A DNA stretch of 64,000 bases, taken from contig CM000151.3 in assembly GCA_000004695.1 (NCBI GenBank), forward strand, positions 7,936,001-8,000,000, read 5' to 3'. The notes below the pieces were generated by a model, which worked only from the letters and a program-made list of their open reading frames with translations, ran no database searches and was not told the origin of the DNA. A program made the translations under genes and the position numbers. The DNA comes from Dictyostelium discoideum (taxonomy: Eukaryota). Below, piece by piece: positions 49,968-60,777 of the stretch. Each line of letters starts with the position of its first letter. The first letter of the stretch is position 1.

Positions 49968-50251
49968 ATGAAACAATACCCAATAAAGATTTATCCAGAA
50001 AATACATTAACAATATTATTATTTAAAAATGTAACAAATACAAATGAAATTAAAGATGGTTTACAAAATGGGTTATGGGATTGGTCAGTTGCAAATTGTA
50101 AACCAATTTTTGATGATCAACAAATTTTAATTGCTGCAACTAAATCAATATCTGCATTTTCAGAATCAAAAAAACCAGAATCATTTAATGAAATAAAGAT
50201 ATAATTAATAGATTATCACCATCTGGAAATGTAAGAGTTTTTATTTTTTGG

Positions 50252-50306
<55 letters not shown>

Positions 50307-50733
50307 ATATTAATTCAAATAAATTAATGATTGATATGTTTATTTTTAAAAATATAAATATAAATAGTTTGCAGATTCTTTAACAAATTTTGGATTAAAT
50401 GGTGATGACAGTGAATTTTTTGTATTTTTAATGAACGCTACACAAGAAAAGATTGATCAAGTTAAAAATAATATTAAAGGTGAAGAGGTTGATATTAGTA
50501 ATGAATCAAAAAATATTTATTTTAATCCAGATTTCGCTAAAAAGGTAATACACTCTTTTTTTATTTCATTATATTTTTTTATTTTATTAATTATTTTTTT
50601 AATTATTATTCAGGTTTATAAAATTAGTGATATAGAATTACCAAATGAACTTTCAACATCAAATAATGAATTATATTTAGAAAAATTAAAAGGATTAATA
50701 ATAAATAATATGGCTGTTAAAGGTTTATTATAG
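49968..50733 (+). CDS. Cgi121/TPRKB (KEOPS complex subunit) ortholog, three exons, with an apparent 1-nt frameshift in exon 1
   Basis: Exons are 49968..50230, 50368..50544 and 50614..50733. Introns are GTAAGA...AAATAG and a 69-nt GTAATA...TTCAG. LTILLFKNVTN..DDQQILIAATKSI, LSPSGN-FADSLTNFGLNGDDSEFFVFL and FAKKVYKISD align with TPRKB. Within exon 1 the frame changes near 50190..50198, by a TAA at 50202 in one frame and a TGA at 50189 in the other. Adding one A to the GAAATAAAG run gives a continuous ...ESFNENKDIINRLSPSGN. Confidence 0.6.
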
Positions 50734-50924
50734 TTTTGAAATAAAAAAAAAAAAAAAGTTTTGCACAGAGGCAAATTTTTTTTTTTTTTTTTTTTTTTTG
50801 GATATTAAAATATTATTTACTTATCATTCATTACTTTATTTATACAAAAGAAAATTATTTATAACGAATAAAAAATTAAATAATAATTTTATTGTTTCAA
50901 ATTATATTTTTTATTATTTATTTT

Positions 50925-51640
50925 AACATGTTCATAGGATATTATTAAAGAGGAATATGTTGACATAAATTTTAAAAAATTTTTTTTTTTTTTTTCCTTT
51001 TCTTTTCGTTTGATTTTTGGAAAGTTTTAATTTTTTTTTTTTTTTTTTTGTTATGAAAATCTGATTTTTAATTTTTGATGATTTATGATTCACTTGAATT
51101 TTTTTATTTTATTATTATTTTATTTAAATTTAACATTCTCTTAGGATATTACTAAAGAGGAATATGTTGGTATAAATTTTAAAATTTTTTTTTTTTTTTT
51201 CCTTTTCTTTTCGTTTGATTTTTGGAAAGTTTTAATTTTTTTTTAATTTTTTTTTTTTTTAAGTAAATAAAATTAAAAAAAAAAAAATTTGAAAATTAAA
51301 ACAATAGTCAGAAAATAAAAATTTGACCCAGATATTTTCTTAAATTATTTTTTTTTGAACCATGACTTTTAAATTTTTGTCAAAAGCCATGATTCAAAAA
51401 AAAAAAAAGGCGACAAACCAACTCAAAACCACCTTAATCCTTAAATTTTTTTAAATAAAATTTTTTTTATTATTTTTGATAGGAAATCTGTATCAGATGG
51501 TATGATTGGTGTTTGGGAATAATGATGTTGAATGGTCCAGAGTTTAAAAGAGGAATGTGTTGAAATAGATTTTAAAAAATTTTTTTTTTTTTTTTTCTTT
51601 TAATTTCATTGGATTTTTAAATAGTTTTTTTAACTTTTTT
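50925..51640. repeat. tandem/dispersed ~200-bp repeat family (2 good copies and 1 diverged copy) with associated hairpin-like TGAACC...GGTTCA motifs
   Basis: The core GGATATTAYTAAAGAGGAATATGTTG..TAAATTTTAAAA..T-run..CCTTTTCTTTTCGTTTGATTTTTGGAAAGTTTTAATTTTT occurs at about 50936..51060 and 51141..51250, with a diverged copy at 51541..51620. Related TGAACCATGACTTTTAAATTTTTGTCAAAAGCCATGATTCA (51358..51400) and TGAACCTTAACTTTTAAATTTTTGTCAGGGACGTGGTTCA (51791..51830) elements lie nearby. Confidence 0.6.
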
Positions 51641-52275
51641 TTTAGGGTTGTGATTGATGGTTTCTTAATTTTTTATTTATTTTTTTTAAATTTTAATATT
51701 CAATGTTTATTTTGAACAGTTTATGATTCAATTGAATTTTAAATTTTTTTTTTTTTTTTAATTATTTTTTTTTTTTTTTTTTTTTTTTTTGAACCTTAAC
51801 TTTTAAATTTTTGTCAGGGACGTGGTTCAAAAAAAAAAAAAAAAAAAATTACATATTTAATTTTAAATTGGGTATCTTCTCGCATTTTTCCAACCAGAAA
51901 ACCTGTTGTAATTTTAAGGATCACAAAAAAAGTAAGATTCTTTTTAAAAATTTTAATCAATTCACCAAAATCTTAAGTGAAAAAAAAGAAAAATAAATTT
52001 ATTTTAATTGAAATTTAAATGGGTCATTTAATTATAATAAAAATCAATTCCAAAATAAAATTTAAAATTAATTAAATTTATTTAATTTGAAAATTTTAAT
52101 TTCAATATAAAAATAAATTTTTTTTTTCAATTTATTTAAAAAAAAAAACAAACAATTAAATCATTTAAATTAGTAAATCAATAAACAAATAAATGTAGGT
52201 GTTAAATTATATTTTTTTTTTTTAAAAAAAAGTTTTATTCTAATATTTTTTTTATTTTTTAATAAACATTAAAAG

Positions 52276-52674
52276 ATGTCAGAACAATCAGAACAAGCAG
52301 AACAAGCAGAATCACCAATACATACTGTTTATTTAATCAATCCAACTAATAGTGTTGAAAATGACACATTTAGAATTTCCTTTTTTGATGGTGTATTATA
52401 TTGGGCCCATTCAACAAATTTTATTGGTTTCCATGGAGGTTATCAAACAGTAAGTACTACTGGCATTAATTACCGTTTCCATGGCAATGATGATCACTAC
52501 CAGGTTGAGTATATTTGTAAGAATACTCCTTCAAGTGTTTTTAAATATCTCAGAGAAGAAATCCAATCCTTAGATGGATTCCACCAACATGTTCTTCCAA
52601 CTGGCACCGGTACTATCATTTTGAAATCTGAAATCAGCGCATTGCGTTTAAGAGTTGTTGCCCGAAATATTTAA
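52276..52674 (+). CDS. small hypothetical protein (132 aa), compositionally atypical
   Basis: Genuine ATG. Not low-complexity. GC/C-ending codon content is higher than in neighbouring genes. No recognised family. Confidence 0.4.
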   Translation: MSEQSEQAEQAESPIHTVYLINPTNSVENDTFRISFFDGVLYWAHSTNFIGFHGGYQTVSTTGINYRFHGNDDHYQVEYICKNTPSSVFKYLREEIQSLDGFHQHVLPTGTGTIILKSEISALRLRVVARNI

Positions 52675-53158
52675 AAAAATAAAAAAAAATGGTTTAATTT
52701 TTCCAAAAATATTAATTTCTTAAAAATTTAAAAAAACTGGAAAATATTTCCTTTTTAAAATATAATTTTTGTTGAATTTTATTTTTTCTTTTTTTTGATA
52801 ACTTTTGAATATAAAAAAAAAAATGGCGAATTTGTTGTTCTGTTTAAAAAAAAAAAATTAAAAAAAAAAATAAAAAAAAAATAAATTTTGTTGATTTTTT
52901 TTTTTTTTTTTTTGAAAAGAAAAAAAAAAAAAAAAAAAAAAAAAAAACATAATTTGGTTTGTCGGTCGCATATGTGCTGTTGAATTAAATAAAGCGCACA
53001 TCACCTATCAATACGCACATATTAATTATATAATCATTTTATTTCATTCTATTTATTTATTTATTTCAATTTTTTATTTTTTTTTTTAACATAAATTTTA
53101 TAATAATAACAATAATAAAACGAAGCCATTATTAATGTTTTAATTAGTACACTAAAAG

Positions 53159-56100
53159 ATGTCATCATCATTATCATTAGCATATAATAATAATAGTAGT
53201 ATACCATCATCTGTATTATTACAACAACAACAACAACAACAGCAACAACAACAACAGCAACAACAACAACCAACTTCATCAGGATATTCACAACAATGTC
53301 TAGTACCAGATATATTCAAATTTTCAGCTAAAGTACAATTAGCTGAAACCATCAGTTACTTAACACCAGTACCGGTTGAAAGTGTTGAAATTTTAATTAA
53401 ATCATGTTGTTCATTATTACCAAATAAACAATATATTGATATTCAACAAAACGATCCATCAATTAAAAGAATTTTCGATTTAAATCCATCATTATTTTCA
53501 ACAATGATTGTAAGTTTTTAAATAAATAAATGTATTATTATTTAAATAATCAAATTTACTAATTTTCATTATTATGACTATTAAAGAGTATTCGAGCACA
53601 AGAATCAGTTATTGCACTATCACATTTTTATAAATGTTCAAATGGTAATGCAGATAAGAGAATTTTACCAATTTTAAAATCATTTTTAGTGTATTTAACA
53701 TATTTTGGTAATAATAGTGGTAGTAGTGGTAATCAATTGAACCAATCTTCACAATCAAATAGTAGTGTAACTCAACAATCACAAATATTTTCACAATCTA
53801 ATGGATTATCAGTACCAGTTGGTATTCATCAAAATGATATTCAAAATTCACAAAATTTCACCTATTATCTATTGAATCAATTAGCAATATTATCCCATAT
53901 TTCCACTGAAGCTAGTGATGAAATTGTACCAGTTTTCTTGGATTTCTTTAATCAAATTATAAAGAATGAGCAAGTTTCAATCATCTATGGTACACTTCAT
54001 GCATTGGCTGATAAAAATAATACTTTTAATTTCAATAATGATCAATTATCAAAAGTAATTAATTCAATTGAATTAATTGTTGAAAATAATTCAAATACAA
54101 AATATAATCAAAAAAAAGTTTGTATTATTAAAATATATTATTATTTTTTATTTTGAATATAAAATATTAATTTTTTTTTTTTTTTTTTTTTTTCCCTTCC
54201 CTTTAGATTCTTTTATTAGTTTGTCAAGCATTTGAAAGAATTACATATTTAAATGAATTAGAAAAGGATGTAACTAGAATTTATAGAAATGTATTCCCAT
54301 TCACTACATCTTCAATTGCATCAACTGATAATGAAGCATTTGTATCTATTATTGTAAGTATTCTCTTACTTTTCCCCACACACCAGTTTCATAATAGTAA
54401 TAATTATTTTTTTTATTTTTTAGAATGTTATTAGAAGATGTGGTATTTTAGAAGAAAATATTGGTAAAGAAGTTTTAGATTATTGTATTAGATTTATTTC
54501 AGAGATAAAGAGTTTAACTGATAGTGAATGTTCAGTATTATTAAGTAAACCATTCACAGAACAACTTTATCAATCAATTTTTACATCATTGGTTGAAATG
54601 ACAGATAAGTATCCTGAAAAGTTATTAAAGGTAATTGAAGTATTAAAAGATTTCCTTTGTGTTTCACCAGTGATTAAGAATAGTGAAGAGACTAGAAATT
54701 CATTATTCACTTGTATTTGCAACATTTTAACAAATGAATATAAAAAAGAAAGAGGTGTTGAAAATTGTAAATCAATCGTTACATCATTCTTAAATACATT
54801 ACATACATTATATACAGGTTATTTAAATGATAATCTCAATAGTAATGGCATAACACAACAAATTTCATCAACAAATACAACACCATCATCCTCATCAACT
54901 TTAACAACATCAAATAGTAATAATAATACAAATTCAAAATCACCAAATTTAAATAGTGCAAATATAAATTCAAATAATAATAATAATAATAATGGTATTC
55001 AAATTCAATCATTAAAAAATATAATAATTATAATTGGTAAAATTACATGTTCATTAAATGATTTAGGTATTATTGAAATTACGAAATCAAATTTCATTAG
55101 TAGATTAGCTTTTCCACCAAGTGAAATTGATAATTTAATATTATTTCAATTGACAGATATTGGTTTATTGGAACATCCAATTATAACAGATTCAATTGTT
55201 GCAATGATTACAAGTTTATTTAAAAAGATTTGTAAAGATTCTAATCAAGGTTTAATTACAAATATTACCGATATAGCATTACAAAAATTGGCAAAACATT
55301 TAGTTAATGAGAAATTACGTCTAGATTTATGTAGAAAGATTTTAAAACTTTTCCAACAGCTAGGTAAAAGTTTTAGAAGGGGTGATAATAGTAATTTTTC
55401 AAATACAAATGGTGGTGGTGGTGGAGGTGGTGGTAATTTCAATAGTAATTATAATAATATGGATCCAAATTATTTATCATCACCAATTTTAAAAGGTATG
55501 GGATTCTTATTACCAACAATAGCAGAGTTAATTAGAACTATACCAATTAGAACATTGGATAGTTCAAATTCTGTGGTTTTTAATGCAGTTGTACCACCTA
55601 CTGGAATCAATAGTGATGGAGAGGAGTTGTTCAATTTAAATAGTGCCTCTGATGTTAAGCTTTATAGATCGGTTTGGTTCTATTGTGTTTTCTTTAAATT
55701 CTCAATTCAAGGTATATGGAGAAGTGATTGGTGGCTAAGTGTTCAAATGATAGCTGCACATTTATCACCATTGATTTCAAATAAACCTCATAACTACTTG
55801 GAAATGGAGGTTGAATTGGATAGTATTATTAAACAAGGCCTTGAAAAGGACTACTTTTACAATGTTAAACAATCATTGGTTGAACAATTACCAAACTATA
55901 CTGCCTATATAAAGAATTTAACATTGGCTCAATTGGGATTCATTCATTCGGTTTACATATTGGAGACTATGAGATTCGCTGTGTCTGGCTCATTCGAATT
56001 GGCATTTGGTTATTTGGAAGATCAAGGTATTGAAAACATTAATGTATCATCTTGTATTCGTGCAATTGTCGATAAGGTATTCGCAGATTTCCTAACTGGC

Positions 56101-59100
56101 TACGCTCCAATCTCGACAACACCAATCGCAGAATATGAGTTATCACTCCATGCCGCTTTCCTTTTGGTCAAATTTTGTTATCCACACGAACCAGTGCGTA
56201 AGGCTGCCGATGATTATATCTCAACATTGGTCACTAAATTCCCACAAGTTTTATGGAGTAAACATTGTCTTTCAACACTATTGGATCTAATTGAAGCCAT
56301 TGGTAAAGGCGCAAAAGCAAAACCAATGGATATGATTTCAGTTAGATTAACTCATTCACATCTATTGATTGAATTACCCGATGAAACACCAGTTCGTCAA
56401 CGTCTTTTACAAGATATCATAGCTTTGGGTAACATTTGGTTAAAGAGTGGTACCAATGCAGCACCCTCTGAAATCCAAGAATTACTTCAAGAGTATATGC
56501 AAAGATTTAATCAATTAAAACATCAACATATGGGTCTATCATTAGCCGTTGAAATTGGTTCGAATGCTGATTTAGCAGCCGATAAATTAATCTCAAATCA
56601 TGGTGCTGAAATTTTAACAAATCAAGCTGCAATCAATAATCAATCACAATTTAACAATCAATCTGGTGGTTTGGCAAGTTGTACAACTAGTAATGCTGCA
56701 AACTTTGTAAATTCATTACAATTAAAAGTACTCTATGGTGGTGAAATTAAAGGTATGTTACATATGATGAATGTTATGGATGAACGTGTTCAACAAAAGA
56801 AATTATTACAACAACAACAAAAACAACTTAATGGTGAAGACAATGATGATGACGACGACGACGATGATGAAGAAATTTCAGAAGAAATTGAAGATAGAGC
56901 ATATGATATTTTAGTTAAAGAATTTGAAAATTTAATTTCAAATGTTCATAAAAGTAATCATCCAGCAAATAATATGGCATTCATTTCAATTATGTATAGA
57001 TCATGTGCATTTTTAATTAATCATTACTTTGGTTCAAATGTACGTTTAATTCATATGATTTGTTATGCACCTGCTTATATTTTCACAAAAGAATCAATGG
57101 AGATTGGTGTTGGCTGTTGGAAATGGTTATTAGCTGAAAGACCTGATCTTTCAAAATTCATTATGACTTCAATTAGTGATATTTGGACATGGACAGTTAA
57201 TCAAAGAATTGGTCTTTTTGCAAATAATGAAAGAGAACCATCACCATTATCTATCTCTAGTCAACAAACTTCAATGGATAATAAACAAGTTAATGAAATT
57301 TTATCAACTTCACCAAATAATAATAATAATAATAATAATACCAATAATAATACCAATAATAATAATCCAATTATTAATGATCCTGAAGCAAGTACAACTG
57401 GTGGTTTTAATAAAGAAGATGAAAGAAATAAATATATTAGACAATTTAAACCACCAAAATCAATTGATAAAACTAGTGATGTTCCTCATAAGATTTGGTT
57501 AGATTTCTTAGAAGAAAGATTCACTGTCTCTAGATATAGCTCACAAGATCAAATGGATATTATTGTTGGTATCATTCAAAAATCAGTTATGGATCCAGAT
57601 GGTCTTAGTGTTTCACCAAAGAGTTTAGGTTCACGTTTCAAATTATTGTTATTGGCAATGAAGTTAATTCAAGGTGATTTTGTTCGTGATGCTTTTAATA
57701 CTCGTTTAATGCGTGAAAGAGTTTATTTAGCTTCCCTAAGTTGGTTTTATTTAGCACCAGTTTGGTATGGTCCTGCTGAAGCTGGCTCACAAGCTCAATT
57801 AGAAATTGATACAAAAACATTGATTGAATATTGTAAGACACTTCAAGCTGAAACTATCTTTCAATTTATGGATAAACGTTATACATTCATTCAAAGTACT
57901 GGTAGTGGTAGTGGTAGTACAACTGGTAGTTTAAGAAGTGGTGTTAGTGGTGTTGGTGGTGGTGTTGGTGGTAATAGTGGTATTTCAAATGGTGGTATTG
58001 CAAATGGTGTTTCAACCAATAATAATGTTGGTAATATTAATAATAATAATAGTAATTTAAATCTTGGATCAAATTCAGTATTACTACCAAATGGTAATTA
58101 TCAACCATCAACCTATGCAACTATTAGAGGTAGTAAAATGTTACAACAATTAGCTAATGGTAGTATTGGTATTCCAATGGATCAATCAAATGGTTCAATA
58201 TCATCTTCATCATCAGTAAGTGGTTTAACACAAAGTTTATCATCAACCTCGTTATATGGTGGATTTAGTATGCATAATTATGGTAGTGGTATTGGTGTTG
58301 GTATAAGTCCAAATAATTTCGCACCAACAACATCAAATAATCCTTACTCTTCAGTGGTTCGTAATTCATCAACATTAAAACAAATTAATGAATCATCATC
58401 AGTATCATCATTTGATTTAATGAATTATGGTGGTGGTGGATTGGAAAGTACAAGAAGTATGTTAGATATTGCAGGTGGTGGTGTTGGTACAATGACATCA
58501 GTTGCAGGTCAACAAATTTCTCAAGCATTATTATTGGATTCAATAGCAGGTGGTAATTTAAATAAACCAGTTGTAAGTGAAGCACATTTAATTGAGTTAA
58601 GAAAGAGAAGAAATTTAATACTTTTATTGGTTGGTAATGAATTGGAGAGAATGTCAGCATGGAATTCACCAGTTAGTCGTATCTCTACACAAATTCCAGA
58701 ACAAACTAAATTTGTCTATGAAAATTTACCAAAATCAATGAAATTGAAATGGAAAGATTATTTAATCTCTGCATGGAAAATCAATCCAAAATTGGCCATT
58801 CATTTTAGTTCTCGTTTCCCTCATTCAAAGATTAAGAGTTTATTAAGTGAAATGGTGGTAAAGAATACTAAAGCAGTTTTAGACATTCCAGAGGCATTAC
58901 CATTTTTAGTGACTGAAGAGAATGTCAAGGCCAATATACCAGAGTTAAAGTATCTTTTATATTGGGAAACTGTTACACCACCTATGGCAATTTCATTATT
59001 GGGAAAACAATATCATTCTCATCCATTGGTTTCACAGTATGCATGTCGTGTACTTCGTTCATTCCCACCTGAAACCATCATGTTTTACATTCCACAATTA

Positions 59101-60777
59101 ACTCAAGCATTACGTTACGATAGATCGGGTCAAGTTGAGAACTATTTGGTTCAAGCATCTAAAACCTCTGAACTTTTAGCTCATCAAATCATTTGGAATG
59201 TTCAAACCTACACTGAAAGCGATCCAAATGGTCGTATGGCACCTATCGATGATCCAATCATTCAAAATGTTGCAAAACGTTTGAAAGATCGTGTCATTGA
59301 AGAAATGCAAACTCAAGATAAAGTCTATCAAAATTATCGTGAAGAATTTGAATTCTTTGAATCATTCACTTCAATCTCTGGTCGTTTACTTCAACTTAAA
59401 GATCCATCAAAGAGAAAAGGTCAATTGAGAGATGAATTGAAAATGTTATCAGTTTCAAGTAATCATTCACCATTGTATATGCCAACCAATCCAAAATCAT
59501 TAGTTGTTGGTTTAGAAGTTGATTCTGCAATGACACTTCAATCCGCTGCAAAAGTACCAATTCTTGTAAACTTTAAAGTCATTGAAAGAAATTTACCAAC
59601 TCCTTCATCAAGTATCTCAAATGTTAAATCACCACCACCAAGTAGTTCACCAATTGAAACAACTTCATCAGTTGCTCCAACTGGTACTTCATCAATTCAT
59701 TCTTCATCATCTTCAACTTTATTACCAATACCATTACCAATTAATGGTAGTAGTAATAATATTATTAATAGTAGTAATAATAATAATAAAAATATTACTG
59801 TATCACCATTAAAATCATCAAGTGGATCTGCAATGGGACCACCACCATCACAACAACAACAACCACCATTATTAGGTAGTACAAATCCATTATTAAGAGA
59901 AAGTACAAGACAACTTAGAAAGAATGTAAATAAAAAACCACAAGAAAATAAGGATACTGAAGCAAATAATAATAAAGTTCATATTCAAGGTTGTATCTTT
60001 AAATCTGGTGATGATATTAGACAAGATATGTTGGCACTTCAAATCATTGATATCTTTAAACGTATTTTCAAATATGTTGGATTGGATCTATATTTATTCC
60101 CATACAAAGTAATTGCAACTAAACCAGGTTGTGGTATGATTGAATTGGTACCTAATACAATGTCACGTGATCAAATTGGTAAAAAAGTTAATGGTAATCT
60201 TTACAATTATTTCATTAGTAAATATGGTAATAAAAATTCAATCGGTTTCCAAAATGCTCGTAGAAATTTCATTAAATCGATGGCTGCCTATTCTGTGGTA
60301 AGTTATATCCTTCAAATTAAAGATCGTCACAATGCAAACATTTTAGTCGACGAGGAGGGTCATATCGTTCATATCGATTTCGGTTTCATTTTCGATATCT
60401 CTCCAGGTGGTGAATTGTTAACATTTGAAGCTTCCCCATTCAAGATGAATCAAGAAATGATCGATATTATGGGTGGTAAACCAAATGCTGAACAATTTGT
60501 TTGGTTTATGGAACAATCAGTACGTGCTTTCTTGGCTGCTAGACAACATATGGATAGTATCATCACCTTGGTCGAACTAATGTTGGATACCAAATTACCA
60601 TGTTTCCGTGAACAAACCATTTATAATCTTCGTCAAAGATTCTGTCCAAATAAGAGTGAAACTATTGCTGCTAAATTTATGAGTAAAATCGTTTTAGATT
60701 CTTTCTCAACAATTAGTACTTTCTCTACATATTTCTATGATGTTTTCCAATATTATGATAATGGTATTGAAATGTAA
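53159..60777 (+). CDS. phosphatidylinositol 4-kinase III alpha (PI4KA/Stt4-like), four exons, about 2460 aa
   Basis: Exons are 53159..53509, 53587..54117, 54207..54353 and 54424..60777. Introns are GTAAGT...AAAG, GTTTGT...TTTAG (weak donor) and GTAAGT...TTTTAG, all phase 0. The C-terminal PI3K/PI4K catalytic domain carries GDDIRQDMLALQII, IKDRHNANILVDEEGHIVHIDFGFIF and FKMNQEMIDIMGG. The upstream accessory region, LLYWETVTPPMAISLL...VLRSFPPETIMFYIPQLTQALRYD..ENYLVQASKTSELLAHQIIWNVQTYT, matches PI4KA. More 5' exons cannot be excluded. Confidence 0.85.

Follow-up and report, generated by a model that had tools for sequence, protein, structure and literature searches.

Cgi121, represented in human by TPRKB, is an accessory subunit of the KEOPS/EKC complex. 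In this family, the surface that binds Bud32 lies mainly on helix alpha8, and the CCA tail of tRNA is contacted by helices alpha1, alpha3 and alpha4 (PMC8565320). A yeast strain deleted for CGI121 is viable, and the deletion was recovered as a suppressor of cdc13 (PMC8565320). A second point of comparison is offered by the frameshift artefacts of Sanger and draft references, in which a unique, derived, frame-breaking allele recorded at low coverage is contradicted by a high-coverage assembly of a near-isogenic genome, against a background of discrepancies far higher than biology would supply. The locus described here, a Dictyostelium discoideum cgi121 gene that changes frame within its first exon, resembles such artefacts in these respects. 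It differs from their commonest type, the homopolymer miscount, in that two bases are replaced by one in coding sequence of ordinary complexity.

Gene structure and identity of the product

The gene was analysed in a window of 64,000 nucleotides from D. discoideum chromosome 2 (CM000151.3, positions 7,936,001 to 8,000,000), which has a G+C content of 22%. From the ATG at 49968, frame 0 reads MKQYP...KKPESFNEIKI and ends at the TAA at 50202..50204. The -1/+2 frame is closed by a TAA (50186..50188) and a TGA (50189..50191), after which it reads NKDIINRLSPSGN as far as the GTAAGA donor at 50231, and from there it joins exon 2 (FADSLTNFG, start at 50368) and exon 3 in frame. The change of frame within exon 1 thus falls between 50189 and 50204. 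The reading frames, stops and exon joins of the original prediction were all confirmed by translation, and its net -1 frameshift in exon 1 was seen again in the three-frame translation. The features of the locus are as follows.

49822..49853, + strand: extra 5' exon of the annotated gene DDB_G0277509, MEICVCKYLLV, 11 codons (match to XP_642600.1)
49854..49963, + strand: first intron of the DDB_G0277509 model (match to XP_642600.1)
49968..50733, + strand: three-exon cgi121/TPRKB gene (frame translation and splice model)
49968..50230, + strand: exon 1, broken by the frame change (three-frame translation; base-for-base alignment to exon 1 of four other assemblies)
50189..50191, + strand: TGA, final stop of the -1 frame ahead of the open Cgi121 frame downstream (three-frame translation)
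50190..50190, + strand: the lesion, a single G against AT in relatives, in the ATA codon for Ile75 (pairwise and five-way alignment)
50202..50204, + strand: TAA, the end of frame 0 and of the 90-aa protein annotated for AX4 (translation and annotation match)
50231..50367, + strand: intron 1, GTAAGA...AATAG (splice model, giving an in-frame 186-aa product)
50252..50304, + strand: 53-nt poly(A) tract within intron 1 (41 nt in GCA_054883475.1)
50368..50544, + strand: exon 2, FADSLTNFG...DFAKK (coding sequence without difference from that of GCA_054883475.1)
50545..50613, + strand: intron 2, GTAATA...ATTCAG (splice model)
50614..50733, + strand: exon 3, VYKISDIEL...AVKGLL, then TAG (splice model)

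Both halves of the interrupted gene were matched by the Pfam profile CGI-121 (PF08617). The N-terminal half (78 aa) covered profile positions 1-51 with 26 bits and the C-terminal half (111 aa) positions 59-159 with 56 bits, while the joined and repaired protein covered positions 1-159 of 159 with 88.4 bits (E 6.9e-25), well above the gathering cut-off of 25. The intact protein of GCA_054883475.1 (P0007) matched the human TPRKB structures 3ENP, 6WQX and 7SZA with E values of about 2e-17 and the yeast Cgi121 structures 4WW5 and 4WW7 with 1e-11. This alignment covers residues 5-155 and runs unbroken across the lesion site, and with 186 aa the protein is close in length to the TPRKB and Cgi121 chains of known structure (177-188 aa). 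By these profile and structure matches, the gene is the ortholog of the KEOPS/EKC subunit Cgi121/TPRKB, in agreement with what had been proposed for it. In contrast to other members of the family, the open reading frame in the window is broken after codon 74 and encodes the first third of the domain only. An uninterrupted frame for the whole CGI-121 domain is absent from the window, the remaining two thirds being encoded in the -1 frame.

Joining 49822..49853 to 49964..50204 reproduces exactly the 90-aa protein annotated for AX4 (P0010; XP_642600.1, EAL68717.1, UniProt Q54ZP2). At this locus, then, the sequence with the frameshift is that of the AX4 chromosome 2 reference as deposited. The model for DDB_G0277509, labelled 'hypothetical protein', ends at the TAA made by the frameshift and omits exons 2 and 3. 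Its extra 5' exon is probably a gene-finder artefact, judging from the gene called in GCA_054883475.1 (locus L001), which starts, at L001 position 10001, at the base aligned to the MKQYP ATG at window position 49968. A literature search returned no paper naming DDB_G0277509, the gene is not mentioned in two supplementary files of Bloomfield et al. 2015, and a search for literature on the curation of sequencing errors at dictyBase gave nothing relevant.

Nature and distribution of the lesion

At the site of the break, the window reads TTTAAT G AAATAAAG, whereas all four other assemblies compared as DNA read TTTAAT AT AAATAAAG. These four, namely the near-isogenic L001 and three further assemblies (L002-L004), share the intact codons AAT ATA AAT AAA, and the proteins of four further species agree with them. 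Given as alleles, the window carries TTTAATGAAATAAAG and the intact form is TTTAATATAAATAAAG; in longer context, the two alleles are CCAGAATCATTTAATGAAATAAAGATATAATT and CCAGAATCATTTAATATAAATAAAGATATAATT. The lesion is accordingly a substitution combined with the loss of one nucleotide, in which a G takes the place of AT, with which an ATA isoleucine codon begins, giving a net change of -1. It lies outside any homopolymer, and a change in homopolymer length is the wrong description of it. Replacing the G at 50190 by AT turns the coding sequence of the window into the 186-aa protein of GCA_054883475.1, residue for residue.

The original prediction had placed the fault in one missing A of GAAATAAAG and attributed it to a homopolymer error, which is contradicted by the AT found at this position in the orthologous DNA. 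Adding one A does restore the frame, but it produces SFNENKD, with Glu-Asn in place of the Ile-Asn of the relatives. The full-length relatives have ...KKPESFNINKDIINRLSPSGN... at the site, SFNINKD is encoded in seven other Dictyostelium assemblies, and the shorter motif NINKD is present in D. citrinum, D. dimigraforme, D. firmibasis and D. purpureum. Neither the exact 78-aa open reading frame nor a first repaired form of the protein was found in a collection of 15 billion proteins, and no Logan or transcript-derived fragments were among the matches of the repaired protein in this collection. Since AT is common to all relatives compared, the allele of the window is unique and derived. Outside 50190 the coding sequence is identical to that of the putative AX2 genome described below, with no second lesion or further decay, which is compatible with an error as well as with a very recent mutation.

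When searched against the large protein collection, the repaired protein retrieved one cluster at 90% identity and the D. purpureum ortholog. Members of 186 aa in this cluster came from D. firmibasis, D. citrinum (two assemblies), D. dimigraforme, D. cf. discoideum and three D. discoideum assemblies, and the cluster also includes the 90-aa AX4 protein EAL68717.1. All nine orthologs found use a single frame, and they are intact at 186 or 183 aa. KAM9946496.1 (ACTFIT_004811, GCA_054883475.1) and the other Dictyostelium orthologs share the locus, the neighbours and the three-exon structure of the window gene and differ from it in being intact; they are labelled 'hypothetical protein' or, by UniRef, cgi121. 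The gene directly upstream, which encodes an SGL domain (PF08450, window 49180..49785), is syntenic in all four other assemblies. The check for a second cgi121 copy that had been called for was run as a protein similarity search, which a very divergent or unannotated copy could escape, and it returned none: AX4 is represented by the 90-aa fragment only, and AX2 by one copy on one contig.

Holland et al. (2025, PNAS) sequenced ten genomes with Nanopore and Illumina, in which D. discoideum is represented by AX2-214, CR116C and OT3A, the latter two being diverged tropical isolates (PMC12745789). The accession series and the species list of the assemblies compared here fit this genome set. Contig JBTAPE010000033.1 of GCA_054883475.1 (L001) aligned to window positions 39953..60744 with four mismatches and 11 gap openings over 20.8 kb, and is 99.98% identical to the window when substitutions are counted. 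Besides the lesion, the two sequences differ by three substitutions, by one unit of a TAT microsatellite and in the lengths of homopolymers. The two other D. discoideum assemblies are about 90-97% identical to the window, so that among the genomes of Holland et al. the near-identity fits AX2-214 only. On the strength of this near-identity and of the project content, we take GCA_054883475.1 to be the laboratory strain AX2-214. Extant Ax2 and AX4 carry an identical deletion-insertion at axeB (PMC4374526), indicating a recent axenic ancestor of the two. The coverage listed for the AX2 genome is 79x, and for the AX4 reference 8x (PMC12745789).

Several further observations were made in the comparison of the two laboratory-strain assemblies. 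A second locus of the putative AX2 genome (L005) spans window positions 1..16029, bringing the total compared to 36.8 kb. The same contig spans the 100-N gap at window 16030..16129 (L005 16785..20952) and places about 4.17 kb between its edges, in which no open reading frame of at least 80 aa is present; judged by this sequence, the gap stands for some 4 kb of repetitive or non-coding DNA. A terpene-synthase-like gene (PF19086, 335 aa) is located at window 4048..5055. Five substitutions relative to AX2 (three G/T and two T/A) are clustered in 80 bp at 7204..7282, just upstream of a gene with an SLBP_RNA_bind domain, and this cluster gives the impression of poor local quality in one of the two assemblies. 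Long A/T runs (50252..50304, 48452, 48620, 52911, 52920 and 8920) differ in length between the window and AX2 almost always, and the long homopolymers are usually longer in the window, by 1-12 nt. One extra TAT unit in the window at 42968..42970 falls within a large gene on the minus strand (AX2 product 1171 aa) and represents either an in-frame difference in repeat length or an assembly difference.

Downstream of cgi121, a direct repeat of ~105 nt is present in three copies (50947..51054, 51152..51259 and 51547..51654) that are 80-81% identical. Each copy reads AAAGAGGAAT(A/G)TGTTG...ATTTTAAAA followed by a T-run, and the repeat has the look of a short coding segment present several times (..KEEYVDINFKKFFF). 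Positions 51547 and 51611, where AX2 and the reference differ by substitution, both lie within the third copy.

Origin of the frame break

We consider it highly probable (about 85%) that the frameshift is a base-call or assembly error in the Sanger-sequenced AX4 reference, which has given rise to a wrong gene model. On this reading, the DNA of AX4 itself would be free of the lesion. The sequence of events would be simple: the 8x Sanger shotgun assembly of AX4 chromosome 2 would have recorded the AT at 50190 as a single G, the miscalled G would artificially split a normal three-exon, 186-aa Cgi121/TPRKB gene, and automatic annotation would then have produced the truncated 90-aa DDB_G0277509 together with an invented 5' exon.

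One argument comes from the number of discrepancies in relation to the supply of mutations. The putative AX2 sequence differs from the window at no fewer than 11 non-homopolymer positions in the 36.8 kb compared, the cluster at 7204..7282 included, or about 3e-4 per base. Against the reference, resequenced AX4 mutation-accumulation lines showed 1,917 candidate differences, 1,916 of them common to the lines, which is a discrepancy of similar order; Saxer et al. (2012) ascribe the common differences to reference errors, differences of the ancestor clone, or mutations during growth before the lines were established (PMC3466296). The mutation rate measured in that study was 2.9e-11 per site per generation (PMC3466296). 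At this rate, 1e5 generations of separation would still leave no more than about 0.1 true differences in 36.8 kb. The discrepancies are thus far above the mutational supply, and nearly all of them must be errors of the reference or the assembly. At 44922, as at the lesion, the window stands alone against AX2 and three outgroup assemblies, and at 51611 it does so against AX2 and the paralogous repeat copies only. At 51547 it is the putative AX2 assembly that may be the odd one out, in which case the long-read assembly is not error-free either.

The surroundings of the lesion offer a possible source of the miscall. A T5/T6 difference (50243) is 53 nt away from the lesion, and the poly(A) tract of differing length 62 nt. 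Sanger reads that cross long homopolymer tracts lose phase and degrade, and the nearby homopolymers are a plausible cause. It speaks against an error that the site is in coding sequence of ordinary complexity, where Sanger errors are rarer than in AT-rich spacers; the spacers contain most of the other discrepancies. In the ranking of causes that had been proposed from the sequence, the first place of a sequencing error and the last place of programmed frameshifting were upheld, while the homopolymer miscount was not.

An unlikely alternative is that AT was truly replaced by G, through a loss-of-function mutation in the AX3/AX4 laboratory lineage after the split from AX2. The reference strain would then have a very young cgi121 pseudogene, and its KEOPS complex would lack Cgi121 or contain a 78-aa stub. 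The deposited sequence and the annotated protein do contain the lesion, the G allele is unique to the assembly of the window, and AX4 has other changes specific to its lineage, the duplication on chromosome 2 being one example (PMC12745789). Yeast tolerates the deletion of cgi121 (PMC8565320), making a real mutation in a laboratory strain biologically possible. The same finding indicates that 'essential', as the subunit had been called, is too strong, and that essentiality is no argument against a real mutation.

Numbers and mutation type weigh on the other side. Real point differences between AX2 and AX4 are expected to be about ten genome-wide, against reference discrepancies of about 1e-4 per base, giving prior odds of roughly 1:100 that any one of them is real. 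A substitution coupled to a 1-nt deletion is, moreover, an unusual spontaneous event. Nitrosoguanidine mutagenesis (AX3 lineage) is expected to yield G:C>A:T transitions, and none of the reference-unique alleles nearby is of this type. The truncated product, which retains PF08617 positions 1-51 of 159 only, should lack the Bud32-binding helix alpha8, judged by sequence position, and would be expected to be inactive. If the mutation were real, AX4 would be a natural cgi121 null, or a carrier of the 78-aa stub, that grows and develops almost normally. AX2 and AX4 would then form an isogenic pair for probing the role of Cgi121 in t6A synthesis and telomere biology in an amoebozoan, and a laboratory strain without a KEOPS accessory subunit would be a modest curiosity.

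Restoration of full-length Cgi121 by programmed -1 ribosomal frameshifting, transcriptional slippage or other recoding is extremely improbable. The two frames overlap by just 10 nt (50192..50201), and the A-AAG in this region could in principle permit slippage of a single Lys tRNA. The shift is, however, confined to GAA ATA AAG ATA, from which an X XXY YYZ heptamer is absent, and the sole heptamer of the exon, found at 50168 (A AAA AAA), precedes two stops in the -1 frame. No homopolymer at the site exceeds 3 nt. Folding of the 99 nt of spliced mRNA downstream gave -14.1 kcal/mol, and shuffled sequences averaged the same -14.1 (z = 0.02). A conserved recoding signal is lacking, since a single frame encodes the protein in the near-isogenic strain and in every relative. 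With no heptamer in the overlap, no stimulatory structure and no conservation, programmed frameshifting was rejected. An Rfam scan of 48.5-53 kb gave only sub-threshold, miRNA-like chance matches.

A cryptic or non-canonical intron that removes the frame-breaking bases has in its favour only that short AT-rich introns are abundant in the D. discoideum genome, and it is refuted by the colinear alignment of the orthologous DNA, in which the window has no insertion, together with the lack of GT. In 50090-50240, GT dinucleotides occur solely at 50098, 50231 and 50237; none lies between the points of the frame break, so an intron cannot bridge the shift, as had been argued from the sequence, and in the intact orthologs the homology to TPRKB passes through the site without a break.

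Meaning for the reference and for the organism

Most likely, the frameshift is a fault of an old reference without biological meaning. The model of DDB_G0277509 needs to be rebuilt as a cgi121 gene of three exons and 186 aa, in which the G at 50190 is replaced by AT. In its present form, the AX4 reference proteome has a 90-aa 'uncharacterized' fragment in place of the KEOPS subunit Cgi121, and this proteome underlies almost all comparative and proteomic work on Dictyostelium. Surveys of orthologs can consequently score Cgi121 wrongly as missing or truncated in this organism. The chromosome 2 reference shows about 1-3 point discrepancies per 10 kb relative to a modern assembly of a sister laboratory strain, and at this rate other 'pseudogenes' in the AX4 reference need to be read with caution. 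The real organism most likely makes a full-length Cgi121, which would serve as the KEOPS subunit for binding of Bud32 and the tRNA CCA end.
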